From contig CAVVOP010000008.1 of NCBI GenBank assembly GCA_963749915.1, forward strand, positions 320,001 to 384,000: 64,000 bases of DNA. Direction: 5' to 3'. The stretch is from an uncultured cyanobacterium (GTDB taxonomy: Bacteria; Cyanobacteriota; Cyanobacteriia; Cyanobacteriales; Cyanobacteriaceae). Shown here in pieces: positions 44,908 through 55,395 of the stretch. Position 1 is the first letter of the stretch. Each line of letters begins with the position of its first letter. Below the pieces are notes generated by a model, which was not told the DNA's origin, ran no database searches, and was given only the letters and a program-made list of their open reading frames with translations. The translations under genes and the position numbers were made by a program.

Positions 44908-46089
44908 ATGCCAGAGAATAAACAGCCAGGAAAATACGATGCGGTAATAAAAAGAGTACCTCAAGCTCCTATGTATGGGGCGGTTATAGGAGGAATACAA
45001 GGGGTTAAACGAAGGTTTGAGTCGGCAAAGGATGTAAATTTAAAAGCAGAAATCCTGCAAGAAGCCTTACAGTACGAAAATCAAGGAATAGAGTTTATCT
45101 TACAGGTAGTTCAAGCTACTAATGAACAAGAAATCTTAGCGGTAGCCTATGATTTACTAAAGGAGAAACAAGAGTCAACAATTCAGAATGTATTATTAAC
45201 TCTGAAAAGAAAACATCCTTGGTTAGATTTACCTCAGTTTAGTTTCGACACAGTGAAGGTAAACCGTAAAGGAGAAATCATTAAACGAGAACAAAAAACC
45301 GCCCGTTACTACCGAGAAGATTTAGGAAAGGGTATTAATCTGGATATGGTTTATATTCAAGGTGGTACATTTATGATGGGAAGTCCAGACGGAGAAGGCA
45401 ATGACAGTGATGAAAAACCGCAACATCAGGTGACAGTATCATCATTTTTTATGGCTAAATATCCCGTAACTCAAGCCCAGTGGAAAGCCGTAGCATCATT
45501 ACCTAAAATTGAGAGAGACTTAAAATTAGATCCTTCTCGGTTTAAAGGAGATAATCGCCCTGTAGAAAAAGTTAACCGGTATGATGCCGTAGAATTCTGT
45601 CACCGTTTATCAAAACTAACAGGGAGAGAATACACCCTACCCAGTGAAGCTAAGTGGGAATATAGTTGTCGGGCGGGAACAACCACAACCTTTAACTGTG
45701 GTGAAACCATTACCACTGATTTAGCCAACTATAACGGTACAGATGAATATTACGGCAGTTATGCTGATGAACCGAAAGGGCAGTATAGGCAAGGAACAAC
45801 CTCTGTAGGCTCATTTCCTGCTAATGATTGGGGATTATCGGATATGCACGGCAACGTTTGGGAATGGTGTGCAGATGAATGGCATGGTAATTATAACAAT
45901 GCCCCTACAGATGGTAATGTGTGGACTGGGGGAGAAAGTAATCGTTGTGTAATGCGTGGTGGTTCATGGTTCTACAGCCCGAATAACTGCCGTTGTGCTA
46001 ACCGTCTCAACGACAACCGTGATTGCGACTACTACTGCAACAACGGCAACGGTTTTCGTGTTATGTCTATTTTCGGGAGGACTTCATAG
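44908..46089 (+). CDS. FGE-sulfatase/C-type-lectin-fold protein, DGR target 1
   Basis: MVYIQGGTFMMGS, EKPQH.V, YPVTQAQW, LPSEAKWEYSCRAGT, DMHGNVWEWC, RGGSW...R......NGFRV; AAC/NNC-rich variable 3' end; followed by avd. Confidence 0.9.
   Translation: MPENKQPGKYDAVIKRVPQAPMYGAVIGGIQGVKRRFESAKDVNLKAEILQEALQYENQGIEFILQVVQATNEQEILAVAYDLLKEKQESTIQNVLLTLKRKHPWLDLPQFSFDTVKVNRKGEIIKREQKTARYYREDLGKGINLDMVYIQGGTFMMGSPDGEGNDSDEKPQHQVTVSSFFMAKYPVTQAQWKAVASLPKIERDLKLDPSRFKGDNRPVEKVNRYDAVEFCHRLSKLTGREYTLPSEAKWEYSCRAGTTTTFNCGETITTDLANYNGTDEYYGSYADEPKGQYRQGTTSVGSFPANDWGLSDMHGNVWEWCADEWHGNYNNAPTDGNVWTGGESNRCVMRGGSWFYSPNNCRCANRLNDNRDCDYYCNNGNGFRVMSIFGRTS
45949..46089 (+). repeat. DGR variable region VR1 with IMH-like 3' end
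   Basis: differs from VR2 almost only at codon positions 1-2 of NNC/NNT codons; 3' GGTTTTCGTGTTATGTCTATTTTCGGGAGGACTTCATAG is identical in both. Confidence 0.8.
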
Positions 46090-46185
46090 CCCTTTGTTCT
46101 TTGTCCCTCTTGCCCTTTGTCTTGTATTTCTTTCTTTCTTTCTTTCTTTCTTTCTGTATTTTTTGTAGTTAGTCATGAGAATTTT

Positions 46186-46497
46186 ATGAAAGAATTATCC
46201 GTAATTCAAAAGACCTATGATTTGATAAAATGGTATGTACCAATAATTGAGAGACTACCAAAAACCCATAAGTTTACTATCGGAGATCGAATCATTAATA
46301 ATTTGTACGATTTATTAGAAGAATTAATTAAAGCAAAATATGCCCAAGAAAAACTAACTAGGTTGGAATCCTTAAATAATGTTTTAGACATATTACGGTA
46401 TCAAACAAGATTATTACTGGATTTTGAATTAATCTCTTTAAAACGTTATGAGTATGTTTGTCAACTGTTTCAAGAAATAGGCATAGAAATTGAATAA
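46186..46497 (+). CDS. avd: DGR accessory variability determinant Avd, apparently C-terminally truncated
   Basis: MKELSVIQKTYDLIKWYVP...LPK.HKFTIGDRI...LY.LLE.LI.AKY, LDILRYQTRLL; ends EIGIEIE* without the usual GGW.K end; start placed at ATG 46186. Confidence 0.85.
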   Translation: MKELSVIQKTYDLIKWYVPIIERLPKTHKFTIGDRIINNLYDLLEELIKAKYAQEKLTRLESLNNVLDILRYQTRLLLDFELISLKRYEYVCQLFQEIGIEIE

Positions 46498-50618: not shown

Positions 50619-51737
50619 ATGCCAGAGAATAAACAGCCAGAGAAATACGATGCGGTGATAAAAAGAGTACCTCAAGCTCCTATGTATGGGGCGGTTATAG
50701 GTGGAATACAAGGGGTTAAACGAAGTTTTGAGTCGGCACAGGATGTTAATTTAAAAGCAGAAATCCTCCGAGAAGCGTTACAGTACGAAAATCAAGGAAT
50801 CGAGTTTATTCTACAAGTATTAGAATCACAGGATTTTGAGTTACAGTGGAAAGCCTATGAGATACTAAAGAATAGACCTGAAACTCAAATCAAGGCAAAA
50901 TTCGATAATTGTTTGCCTGTCTTCAGTTTCGACACAGTGAAGGTAAACCGTAAAGGAGAAGTAATTAAACGAGAACAAAAAACCGCCCGTTACTACCGAG
51001 AAGATTTAGGAAAGGGTATTAATCTGGATATGGTTTATATTCAAGGTGGTACATTTATGATGGGAAGTCCACACGGAGAAGGTTATAGTGATGAAAAACC
51101 GCAACATCGGGTGACAGTACCATCATTCTTTATGGCTAAATACCCCGTCACTCAAGCCCAGTGGAAAGCCGTAGCATCTGAGAGAAACTTAGAATTAAAT
51201 CCTTCTGAGTTTAAAGGAGATAATCGCCCTGTGGAAATGGTTAACTGGTATGATGCGGTAGAATTCTGTCACCGTTTATCAAAACTAACAGGGAGAGAAT
51301 ACACCCTACCCAGTGAAGCCAAGTGGGAATATAGTTGTCGGGCGGGAACAACCACAGCCTTTAACTGTGGTGAAACCATTACCACTGATTTAGCCAACTA
51401 TGACGGTACAGATGAATATTACGGCAGTTATGCTGATGAACCGAAAGGGGAGTATAGGGAAGGAACAACCCCTGTAGGGTCATTTCCTGCTAATGATTGG
51501 GGATTATATGATATGCACGGTAACGTCTGGGAATGGTGTGCAGATGAATGGCATGAAGATTATAACAATGCCCCTACAGATGGTAATGTGTGGACTGGAG
51601 GAGAAAGTAATTGTAGTGTAATGCGTGGTGGTTCATGGCACGACGGGCCGAGTGGCTGCCGTTGTGCTAGCCGTCTCAGCTACGACCCCTACAACTACGG
51701 TTTTCGTGTTATGTCTATTTTCGGGAGGACTTCATAG
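50619..51737 (+). CDS. FGE-sulfatase/C-type-lectin-fold protein, DGR target 2
   Basis: near-identical paralogue of 44908-46089 with a different linker and a different variable 3' end. Confidence 0.9.
   Translation: MPENKQPEKYDAVIKRVPQAPMYGAVIGGIQGVKRSFESAQDVNLKAEILREALQYENQGIEFILQVLESQDFELQWKAYEILKNRPETQIKAKFDNCLPVFSFDTVKVNRKGEVIKREQKTARYYREDLGKGINLDMVYIQGGTFMMGSPHGEGYSDEKPQHRVTVPSFFMAKYPVTQAQWKAVASERNLELNPSEFKGDNRPVEMVNWYDAVEFCHRLSKLTGREYTLPSEAKWEYSCRAGTTTAFNCGETITTDLANYDGTDEYYGSYADEPKGEYREGTTPVGSFPANDWGLYDMHGNVWEWCADEWHEDYNNAPTDGNVWTGGESNCSVMRGGSWHDGPSGCRCASRLSYDPYNYGFRVMSIFGRTS
51618..51737 (+). repeat. DGR variable region VR2
   Basis: aligns to VR1 with codon-position-1/2 substitutions; 21 nt shorter. 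Confidence 0.78.
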
Positions 51738-51814
51738 CCCTTTGTGCTTTGTCCCTCTTGCCCAATGTCTTGTATTTCTTTCTTTCTATCTTGTATTTTT
51801 TGTAGTTAGGGTTT

Positions 51815-52081: not shown

Positions 52082-53023
52082 CTATGATTGGTGCAAGATT
52101 TGAGTATGAGAATTTAACCAGTTAATTAAATCATCGAGACATTGAAAATCAAAAATAGCATCCCCTAAATCTTCAATTTGGCATAAGGATAAATCATTAA
52201 TTTGCCTTTCCAACTCAGGAGAAAACTCCCCGAAACGTTTTTTAATTTGACGCTTAACGAGATTTTGTTCACCTTGGTGTAACCCACGCTGTAAGCCGAT
52301 TTCAATGCCTTCTTCCATCCAACTGGTGACAATTTTCATAATTTGTTCTTCCTCTGCTAATCCTATTTGTTTTAATTCGGTTTCAAATTCTTGGGTTTCC
52401 GTTAGATTTAATTTTAAATAAGTATCCACAAATCCTGAAATTAACTCTATTCTAGCGGGATCTAAACTTAAAGTAGCTAACATTCTCAGACATTCTAATT
52501 TTACCTTAGCTCTTTCCTCTGATTTAAAGTCCATTTTTGCCATTAAAGCGGCGGCGATAGGATTGGGTTGATTTAAAAATTGTCGCCAATTAAGTCGATT
52601 TAACTGGATAGTCGTGTAGTTAAATTCGAGGATTTTTTTATCAGGAAATGTAACTAAATATTAATTTGTTTCCTCTCGTTTTGGCTTATCATAGGAAAAG
52701 ATAACTACAGGATAAATTGGTAAACGATATTTAGCATCTAAACGAGCAAAATAATGAAACATTCGCCGTTCAAATTCGCTCTGATTATAGGCTTGATTTT
52801 CAATATGGATGAGGAAAAAACGGTTTTCTTCTTGCCATTTTACTTGGGCGAGTAAGTCGATTTTTCGTTTATCTCCTGCGGTTACATCGATAAAAACTTC
52901 TTCAGGTAAAAAAGTTAAACTATCTTTTGATATATATTGTAAAATATCGGGAATAAATAATTCAATAAATTCCCAGAAAAATGTCTGGATTAATTCTTTA
53001 AAAAGACGGTCATGATCTATCAT
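52082..53023 (-). pseudogene. Rpn/YhgA-like (DUF4351 C-terminus) putative nuclease split by an in-frame TAA
   Basis: DHDRLFKELI.TFF.EF, IDLL, LIHIENQ; the same frame continues after TAA 52661-52663 (YLVTFPDKKILEFNY...NPIAAALMAKM) to a DUF4351-like end. Confidence 0.85.
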
Positions 53024-53126
53024 ATTTGTTCATAACTTATAGGTTGATGATTTTTAGTAATAATAATATCTTTCCCTTTAAAAGAAGTATAATTAAAAAT
53101 GTATAAAATCAAAAACAAAGTCACCC

Positions 53127-53339
53127 ATGGCTGAATATCAACGAATAGAGTACCAAATCGGCAAAGACGGTAAAATCACAGAAAGGGTAATTGATGCCAG
53201 TGGTAATAGTTGTCTGCAACCTACCCAAGCATTAGAAGAAGCATTAGGAGAAATAGAATCAAGGGAATTACTCCCTGAATATTACGAAGGAGAAGAAAAC
53301 TTAACCACCGATAATATTCAACGATCGAAATCATTGTAA
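53127..53339 (+). CDS. DUF2997-family protein
   Basis: IEY.IGKDGKITE.V..ASG.SC...T..LEEALG.I..RE..PEYY; usual partner of DUF1257 and Ycf46-like ATPase. Confidence 0.8.
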   Translation: MAEYQRIEYQIGKDGKITERVIDASGNSCLQPTQALEEALGEIESRELLPEYYEGEENLTTDNIQRSKSL

Positions 53340-53403
53340 GCTAGTTCACATCTCAATACTGCTTGGTTAGTCGCTCAAGTTATTTTGTCCGCCCCCTAAA
53401 TCC

Positions 53404-53510
53404 CTGACAAGGGTAGGTTTTTTACATTTGGGTTGAGACAAGACAAGGAAGGAACGAAGGACAGCAGACAAGGGAGATAGTAGAAACGAAAAATGGTCTT
53501 TTTAGCCATT
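53404..53510 (+). mobile_element. isolated IS end (same TIR as 8038)
   Basis: CTGACAAGGGTAGGTTTTTTACA is identical to 8038-8060 and is followed by GACAAGG repeats. Confidence 0.75.
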
Positions 53511-53554
53511 TATGTATTATTTGTAACAAAATGTTTCTTAAACGATTCCCCTCT

Positions 53555-54126
53555 TCCCAATACTGCTCGGTTAGTGGTAAAAACGTTACGGTGAGGTTAA
53601 AGTAATGAGTAATAAGTAATGAGTAATAAGTAATCAGTAATAAGTAATGAGTAATAAGTAATGAGTAATAAGTAAATATTTATTGTTTATAGAGACAGAA
53701 GATTTTGCTATCAGAATTATTAAAGCTTATTCCGAACTGAACAAAAGGAACTTTGATGATGCAGCTAAAGTTTTATCAAAACAATTTTTAAGAAGTGGGA
53801 CATCAATTGGGGCTAATTGTTCAGAAGCAAAATATGCACAGTCGAAGAAGGATTTATTAACAAATATTCTATAGCTTTAAAAGCAGCAAATGAGACCCTT
53901 TATTGGATAAAAATAATGATTAAATCAGAGCTAGTATCACAATCTAAATTTCAAAAAATGATAGAAGAGAATGAAAGAATTATTAAAATATTAATGAGTT
54001 CAATCAATAAATTAAAAGAAAAACAATCTAGTTAAATTTTTATTCATTACTCATTACTCATTACTCATTACTCATTACTTCATCTTCACAGTAAGATTTT
54101 CGGGCAAATCCCTCGCAGTATTGGGA
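53555..54126 (+). mobile_element. TIR-bounded cassette carrying a four-helix-bundle gene between inverted heptamer arrays
   Basis: 12-bp TIR TCCCAATACTGC/GCAGTATTGGGA; (AGTAATR)x10 at 53601-53675 and (CATTACT)x5 at 54045-54079. Confidence 0.8.
53683..54035 (+). pseudogene. four-helix-bundle protein (23S rRNA IVP family), frameshifted
   Basis: FAIRIIK...LSKQFLRSGTSIGAN.SEA..AQSKKD / FINKYSIALK.ANET.YW; one T missing near 53853. Confidence 0.85.
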
Positions 54127-54757
54127 CGCAACCACCAAGACACCGCAGAACAAGCCAACGCCGAACCAGCCACACAACGGAAAGAAACCACGGGAACAAA
54201 CCCCCAACGAAAGAACAGCTTCTTTTCACCCGTTCTCATTTTTCACCGTGAACTTTGATCTGTGCGCAAGGCAAAAATAAATAAATGGAGCGTAGCCGTT
54301 ACGAAGACTATAACTAAGTACAACTAAACTATGGCGGCGGAGCGACTTCAATTAAGGTGTTGCCTAGTCGCACCACAGAACGGGTATACTAGAAAAGCGG
54401 TCGTTCATTATCCCCACAGTTCCAGCCACGCAGTGACCTAGGGTCGGAAACAGTAGCCTTTGAGATAAACCGAAGGCAAAAAGACTATGTTTTTAACTGT
54501 ATTTCAATCTAAATATTAATATATATTAAGAAAAATTAACTAAAAAAATCTCTGATTAATTAAATCTTATTAAATGATTAGAATATGAGGAAAGTTCAGT
54601 ATATTTACTGTTGTTAGTAAATATAAAATTGGGAACTATAAGTCTATAGCAAACTAGATTTATACTCTGACTTATTACTCATTACTCATTACTCATTACT
54701 CATTACTCATTACTTCATCTTCACAGTAAGATTTTCGGGCAAATCCCTCGCAGTATT
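54044..54757 (+). repeat. perfect 79-bp direct repeat (54044-54122 and 54679-54757)
   Basis: T(CATTACT)x5 TCATCTTCACAGTAAGATTTTCGGGCAAATCCCTCGCAGTATT occurs twice. Confidence 0.92.
54075..54239 (-). pseudogene. possible adenine-free small ORF, truncated by the MITE arm
   Basis: MRTGEKK-LFFRWGFVPVVSFRCVAGSALACSAVSWWLRP-(MITE-derived NTARD...); codons 8-39 contain no A. Confidence 0.4.
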
Positions 54758-54828
54758 TATCTGCACTATTTTTAAGGTATTAAGGCTCAAATATTTTTAC
54801 AGTTTTTTAACATTAAATAGGATAAACA

Positions 54829-55395
54829 ATGGATTTTAATTATCTATTAACAAGCATATTTTTATGGCTAATAATTAGCCTTTTATTATTGACAGTTTTT
54901 GCTTCCTCATCACCTTCTAATCAAGGTAAATTTAAAGATTTTAAAGACAATAAATCTCAGGATTTAGATAACGATTCGGGTAAAGAAGAAATCATCGCCC
55001 TTCAACAACAATGCCAAAGATTAAGAGAGGAATTAGAAGCCCAATCTAACCAGTTAAAAGATGATTTTCGTAGTGACACTTTTGAACAATTACAGCCTTT
55101 ATTAACTAACTATCCCACCGCCCGTGAGATGGCAAAAGCTAAACCAGATTTACCCGCTAAAAATCTAGTATCTTTGTTCACATCCTTAGAAAACTTGTTA
55201 GAAAGTTGGGGTTATGAAACCATTGGCACACCGTGGGAAGAAGTTAATTATAATCCTCAAATTCATCAAGGTGACAGTGATGATATTGAAGTAGGGGAAT
55301 CGGTTTATATCCGTTTTGTAGGCTACCGTGACGGCGATAATATTCTTTATCCTGCGAAAGTAAGTCTCAATCTTCCTCCCAATTTAAAAAGTTAA
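54829..55395 (+). CDS. membrane-anchored GrpE-like nucleotide exchange factor
   Basis: N-terminal TM helix, coiled coil, C-terminal IG...V.YNPQIHQ...GY..GD.IL.PAKVS GrpE-type beta domain; directly upstream of Hsp70. Confidence 0.75.
   Translation: MDFNYLLTSIFLWLIISLLLLTVFASSSPSNQGKFKDFKDNKSQDLDNDSGKEEIIALQQQCQRLREELEAQSNQLKDDFRSDTFEQLQPLLTNYPTAREMAKAKPDLPAKNLVSLFTSLENLLESWGYETIGTPWEEVNYNPQIHQGDSDDIEVGESVYIRFVGYRDGDNILYPAKVSLNLPPNLKS

Follow-up and report, generated by a model that had tools for sequence, protein, structure and literature searches.

Plasmid leading regions carry Frpo, or ssi, elements, which are described as long imperfect DNA hairpins that bring together a -10 box and its complement (PMC11541004). 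The locus analysed here resembles them in having such a hairpin with a -10 box, in the template of its gene, which lies on the hairpin-bearing strand, and in its co-oriented genes for ArdA, SSB and strand-annealing proteins. It differs in lacking the canonical -35 spacing, in the large bulges of its template arm and in a transcript without adenine, a word that has 0 occurrences in the main text of PMC11541004. Two other systems are close. Diversity-generating retroelements (DGRs) share the adenine-specific pattern, and DGR parts are present in the same DNA and genome. However, our cassette has no template repeat and no consistent reverse transcriptase (RT), and its copies vary among C, G and T. 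The third comparison is with messages under toxin attack. RNase targets listed in PMC5408214 include the A-containing ACA, UACAU, AAAK and AAAAA, and transcripts without ACA are reported there to be translated under MazF. As in our cassette, the sequence content of the mRNA permits expression under host shut-off; there, however, one triplet was removed by engineering, whereas here a whole base is absent from natural transcripts of 300-1,700 nt. A literature search over titles and abstract openings (subscription papers and supplements stood outside it) returned no description of A-free genes or of transcripts without one base, and the parts seen of 10.1101/2025.04.03.647016 and PMC11541004 describe no whole transcripts of this kind. 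Within the literature searched, natural transcripts without one base appear to be new.

The original prediction pointed to 97 nt without any T on the + strand at 54123..54219 of the window, by which we mean the whole 64,000-nt stretch of DNA. The run is there. No other T-free run of the window exceeds 43 nt, and the 97-nt run is far above chance: runs this long are expected 1e-11 times per window with independent bases and 2e-9 times under an order-3 Markov model of the window. The run is the A-free 5' part of a predicted transcript on the - strand, comprising a 28-nt leader and the first 23 codons, and window positions 54124-54536 are 95% identical to intact copies on contigs C8 and C23 of the same genome. 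The minus-strand ATG frame seen initially (54239-54075) is present and runs into a repeat arm. Its ATG is probably not the start, as it lies upstream of the predicted transcription start. Because this ATG is out of frame in the C13 copy and missing in the C7 copy, the true start is probably GTG 54191. The five G that stand 9 nt upstream of it (54201..54205, - strand) form a probable adenine-free ribosome-binding site, as similar G runs before the starts of relatives suggest.

From GTG 54191 the truncated coding sequence keeps 23 of 94 codons (54123..54191, - strand), and its stop and terminator are lost. Its frame stays open across the junction with the repeat arm and meets a stop at 54075. 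The cut, at 54122, is made by the right arm (~54040-54122) of a MITE-like repeat element (53560..54122) with heptamer repeats and a frameshifted 23S_rRNA_IVP gene. This four-helix-bundle gene (53683-54035) is split across two frames. A second copy of the right arm occupies 54655..54757, and the gene fragment thus lies between direct repeats; the end of the arm has 13 matches in the genome. Beyond the hairpin discussed below, 54402..54536 is the remainder of an upstream region that genome comparison shows to be common to the intact copies. The window copy is a dead relic, the front third of a 94-codon mobile-element gene without stop or terminator, and the interest rests with the family.

A scan of the whole assembly for long single-base-free runs, suggested with the prediction, found intact homologous copies on C13, C8, C23 and C7, with T-free runs of 320, 311, 311 and 196+129 nt, respectively. 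An additional 3' fragment of the gene lies on C9. All four intact copies have a 94-codon frame with a GTG start and a TAG stop, followed by a G+C stem and a run of T. In three of them the A of the TAG stop is the sole A over ~360 nt from the leader to the end of the terminator; the C7 copy has one more. Among these four copies, which are few and closely related sequences, the coding frame has a pN/pS of 0.51 and the two alternative frames have 1.0 and 1.11; the 94-codon frame is under purifying selection. Two DNA runs from separate studies also yielded contigs with the gene, and one (X5) carries the same junction of gene and repeat arm as a loose end. The longer homologous runs on other contigs and the gene in other DNA runs show that the T-free stretch is no assembly error. 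Among the substitutions listed for contigs from other samples, none inside the gene makes an A and several in the flanks do. That the family is a real coding gene, that it excludes A and that it is truncated in the window is, taken jointly, close to certain.

RNA contigs from two metatranscriptome studies cover the whole gene, first bases and terminator included, but not part of the hairpin. Such contigs cannot give strand, start or level and may derive from DNA, and we do not count them as evidence. At L012:6982-7112 (window ~54440-54536) the RNA-library contigs show far greater depth past the hairpin than across the gene itself; the depth of contigs is no basis for ranking RNAs, and some of this region is repeated.

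A search of 1.84 billion representatives with a profile built from 11 sequences returned 47 hits, including an unrelated 4,561-aa repeat protein. One frame is conserved in 46 of the 47. The family occurs in 14 of 401 genomes of the order and in 14 of 301 of the phylum (the two samples overlap). The product is predicted to be a small alpha/beta protein (pLDDT 90, pTM 0.80). It has no match in Pfam, NCBIfam, PHROGs or PDB, an Atlas search gave no usable match, and fold searches returned no E below 0.001; the best fold match (Z 6.4, rmsd 3.0, 70 aligned) has the common ferredoxin-like arrangement. The plasmid collection holds no DNA match to the window stretch and no match to the small family, and the phage collection holds no match. 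The genome contig collection yielded 0 of 60 candidates against the close alignment, and Rfam over 53000-55000 gave 0 matches at E up to 1. One weak match among 21 viral contig candidates was in DNA of normal composition and was dropped.

The prediction had been made to depend on homologues that are also poor in A. Most are, in searches whose A-free protein seeds bias them to A-free matches: A content is at most 3% in 39 of 46 distinct family genes of the fetched loci. Homologues with normal A also exist, since seven of the 46 are above 3%, six of them at 11-37%. Eight further family matches have A counts of 1/201, 8/195, 1/198, 15/195, 24/231, 59/258, 81/255 and 80/225. In the family tree (96 sequences, 79 columns, FastTree, midpoint root) the normal-A homologues are spread over about seven places with weak support, and the direction of change is not fixed. 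Two normal-A members stand in tandem in genome G010 (L153 and L162).

Adenine exclusion extends well beyond this family. The 88 A-poor units that we delimited cover 54,385 nt and reach 1,700 nt; they contain 1.9% A, against ~25% in their flanks. At fourfold third positions of 73 loci, A is 2.1%. In the 40 nt after the stop codon, A is 7.1% in cyanobacteria (27 genes) against 29.4% in 229 controls, and 16.8% in other phyla (28 genes) against 24.8% in 272. Since A is depleted after the stop as well as in the codons, the exclusion spans the transcript and not the codons alone. The stop codon is TAG in 27 of 27 cyanobacterial A-free genes, which are related, against 45 of 229 controls; TGA is used in 11 of the 28 genes from other phyla. 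G preceding A is under-represented (274/1036, against 35% G), the commonest context of a residual A is AG, and GG is not avoided (o/e 0.98).

Several causes were rejected on these numbers. Fourfold sites in cyanobacteria (C 0.23, G 0.32, T 0.45) resemble the values left when A is simply removed (0.29, 0.27, 0.44) more than those of A-to-G conversion, for which G would be 0.47. Avoidance of UV dimers does not agree with AG as the commonest residual context and with the GG ratio. Melting of the template or release of the hybrid was also rejected, as synonymous A restored in 19 genes barely alters RNA folding, DNA folding or hybrid energy. A reason in tRNA only leaves the A-poor untranslated parts unexplained. 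The loss of A along the entire transcript is very probably due to selection rather than mutation. A selective avoidance of A, with a link to single-stranded DNA, had been one of the two readings offered at the outset, and it is the best fit to the codon, hairpin and unit-edge data. The A-poor small ORFs rich in S/V/A/F/R/W that the prediction placed in mobile DNA also exist, and the ORF in the window is one.

The T-free run ends at an imperfect hairpin that would form on the single + strand (54215..54401), a putative Frpo-like promoter recognised by folding and covariation. Alignment of the copies places its stems at 54222-26/54393-97, 54228-31/54382-85, 54262-66/54369-73, 54269-72/54362-65 and 54295-98/54335-38, and the template arm has two 11-nt bulges. 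A -10-like hexamer, TATACT (TATAAT in the C8 copy), lies largely unpaired in the 3' arm (54385..54390, + strand), opposite a mismatch. The base 7 nt past it pairs at 54219-54222, which is the end of the T-free run. In the 22 named stem pairs, 131 of 132 cells are paired, and eight pairs are changed on both sides, all to Watson-Crick pairs (0 of 500 shuffles); the set comprises six aligned copies from three genomes, three of them nearly identical, and the structure was derived from the same sequences. Folding of the whole region is not significant (z -0.76 for the window, -1.26 for the C8 copy). A consensus scan found no canonical -35 at 16-18 nt; the best candidate, 54360-54365, is 19 nt away and varies between copies. 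In duplex DNA the -10-like hexamer would point away from the gene.

Across the 88 units, z is below -2 in 28, and long-range pairing beats the shuffles in 45 (8 shuffles each). The -10 motif, for which these strands were themselves the training set, occurs in 24 of 88 units, compared with 1 of 88 for the opposite strand and 3 of 86 for downstream sequence. In 15 of the 24 motif-bearing units, the pairing of the cognate arms ranks in the best tenth. In 14 of these 24 the predicted start is at most 3 nt from the edge of its A-free unit, and in 12 the two coincide (controls 59/454 and 16/216); the 14 represent ~4 lineages, and an A-rich stretch before the start partly defines the edge. A single-strand promoter on the T-free strand is likely on this sequence evidence. 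By analogy it may work like the known Frpo kind, of which it is a putative member.

G003 has a normal-A member of the window family immediately beyond the hairpin, and a G049 contig has a DprA-like gene with normal A on the opposite strand. Because these relatives lie outside the hairpin or on the opposite strand, there are hints that A exclusion tracks the promoter rather than the protein. The hairpin is also found on its own. At L002:1505-1730 (G001) it is retained with compensatory changes and no A-free gene follows. In the source genome, most of the hairpin region is present a second time (L012:17796-18035, C8:887795-888034); this copy, without the base of the 5' arm and without the A-free gene, adjoins the end of a DGR-type RT gene.

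The upstream region and leader seen at the window gene also stand before a different A-poor gene in G003, of 166 codons, with 114 homologues at E below 1e-5. Four of 35 members match PF02481. The model matches DprA (Z 10.2, rmsd 3.0, 122 aligned), YpsA (9.3), ShosA (8.9), LOG (8.4) and the SLOG domain of ThsA (8.1), values within ~1-2 of each other that allow no choice of sub-family among them. The modelled product has a SLOG Rossmann-like fold, with DprA the nearest match. It differs from DprA/Smf and the SLOG superfamily in its identity of 12-19% over ~165 aa and in drawing almost exclusively on the ten amino acids that A-free codons can encode. Among the best 80 of 89 companion loci, which come from a species collection and whose taxa were read from record titles, are cyanobacteria, Bacteroidota, Ignavibacteria, Blastocatellia, Anaerolineae, Gammaproteobacteria, Desulfobacterota and others. 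In the same best 80 of 89, A within the match is at most 7% in 77 loci and above 7% in three; the searches were seeded with A-free proteins and are biased to A-free matches. The window family lies directly upstream of, or is fused to, the companion gene in 19 of these 80.

The cassette has exchangeable cargo: the small alpha/beta protein, the protein with the DprA/SLOG fold, or both. More cargo types exist, as further A-poor units contain neither studied gene (L072, L095, L115, L055, L080, L109, L120 and others), some of them on the opposite strand. The DprA-like A-free genes of cyanobacteria use TAG in 27 of 27 cases although TGA is equally A-poor.

Recurring neighbours in 99 loci, annotated by scanning cluster representatives, are ArdA, Gp157, ERF, DdrB, DUF3799, YqaJ, SSB, a staphylococcal-type nuclease, YdjM, integrases and ParA. 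Genes of the leading-region-type families ArdA, Gp157, ERF, DdrB, DUF3799 and YqaJ have the orientation of the cassette in 40 of 40 cases, whereas long ORFs as a whole have it in 451 of 719. The first five families, those measured, keep 20-44% A. The original prediction had asked whether an RT, a SLOG/DprA-like gene or a relaxase accompanies intact elements. A DprA/SLOG-like gene is found beside the cassette; a relaxase tied to it and a consistent RT are not. A TrwB-like gene is present in three of 99 loci, one relaxase family was found in one of five genomes, off the cassette contig, and the 30 of 63 ORFs that were scanned include no relaxase. The plasmid collection contains one record with the DprA-like gene. 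One annotated plasmid with the cassette, from Microcystis, is typed as non-mobilizable and has no annotated feature at that gene. The cassette points to genes overlooked by annotation.

We propose that the cassette consists of a hairpin promoter, an adenine-free transcript and an intrinsic terminator. When the element is single-stranded, its T-free strand would fold, and the hairpin would offer a -10 box to the host RNA polymerase. The polymerase would pass through the 5' arm and continue along the T-free template, giving an mRNA of G, C and U that begins with G or C; A would be kept where the protein or the stop codon demands it. Selection, not mutagenesis, would strip A from this transcript. 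Under the Cap17 ATP nucleosidase defence, ATP and dATP are reported to fall and the remaining six (d)NTPs to build up (10.1101/2023.01.24.525353). An A-free message would need almost no ATP and could be made while such a nucleotide-depleting defence drains ATP and dATP. Shortage of dATP would also stall second-strand synthesis and so hold the element single-stranded with its promoter on. In that drained state the A-free unit alone could be transcribed. Translation needs ATP too, which counts against this reason. The whole chain, from hairpin promoter through A-free transcript to the sparing of ATP, is tentative and somewhat more likely to fail than to hold. A still bolder reading is rather doubtful, namely an emergency three-letter expression cassette of mobile elements in several phyla, whose ten-amino-acid proteins counter nucleotide-draining defence.

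The strongest competitor keeps the same cassette and has A excluded so that the mRNA evades the adenine-directed RNases or RNA-modifying toxins of many hosts. The exclusion spans leader, codons and trailer, that is, the RNA itself. The A-containing toxin targets and the translation of ACA-less messages under MazF point the same way, although the table in PMC5408214 also lists the A-free targets UCGCU, GUUGC and GCU, which the cassette mRNAs could still carry. The uniform TAG (27 of 27, against 45 of 229) and the scarcity of G before A (274/1036, against 35% G) would fit avoidance of GA, but the 27 genes are related and TGA ends 11 of 28 genes in other phyla. In addition, motif-specific enzymes need not make every A costly. 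Escape from RNases is possible, if doubtful. We tentatively favour the sparing of ATP, because it explains the cost of each A, a transcript that begins exactly at G or C, and the link with a single-strand promoter.

Selection might instead act on the DNA, with the exposed template strand avoiding thymine. T in single-stranded DNA can be modified, cut or coated, through ADP-ribosylation of the DarT type and the binding of SSB or RecA. The T-free strand is the one with the hairpin and the -10 box, and its T-free part is exactly what the polymerase would read unpaired. Against this, neighbouring genes on the same strand and the bulges of the hairpin retain T, UV dimers are excluded as the cause by the AG contexts and the GG ratio (o/e 0.98), and removal of A hardly alters the folding of the template. 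This explanation is unlikely.

The other reading offered at the outset, repeated copying by a DGR-type RT that purged all but essential adenines, fares worse and is highly improbable. It draws on DGR-type RT genes at three places in the genome, two of them within 13 kb of intact copies, on DGR targets and bAvd in the window, and on an A-free interval that equals a transcript. A search of the genome that forgave A mismatches found no A-bearing template, however: all 33 matches are the known copies with 0-1 A. RT genes are scarce at the cassettes, occurring in five of 99 loci (two from the source genome), co-oriented in one of six ORFs. A DGR-like RT was detected in one of 15 other cassette-bearing genomes, two of which may be one genome; one distant RT, on a G079 contig, escaped the query, and the elements also change hosts. 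The A-poor units are up to 1,700 nt long. The nearby DGR targets look incidental to the A-free gene.

Last, a non-coding oddity of composition or an assembly artefact would agree with the lack of a Pfam, NCBIfam, PHROGs or PDB match and with three frames left open for want of A, but it can hardly be credited and is refuted for the family, though the window copy itself is non-functional, by a frame conserved in 46 of 47 profile hits, a pN/pS of 0.51, the lone TAG at the end, a model with pLDDT 90 and pTM 0.80, and the gene and junction in other samples.

Conserved folded proteins from three-base transcripts would point to a selective force able to rewrite whole genes into ten amino acids, and in this cassette the force could be tested by one synonymous recoding. 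Selection for an A-free transcript behind a hairpin promoter would also provide a sequence signature for single-strand promoters and for the early genes of elements without recognised relaxases.

Other features of the region were observed. A 226-aa ORF at L012:6071-6748, next to the intact C8 copy, has a weak gasdermin match in Pfam (E 0.003, below the cut-off). Another repeated single-base-free stretch of 58-74 nt occurs in the source genome, G000 (C12:13869-13942, C15:15914-15987 and C10:32067-32124), and is unrelated to the A-free gene. The window carries two genes with FGE-sulfatase domains and a bAvd-like gene (44908-46497 and 50619-51763). Past the stops of the two FGE-sulfatase-domain genes lie A-free stretches of 37, 31 and 27 nt.
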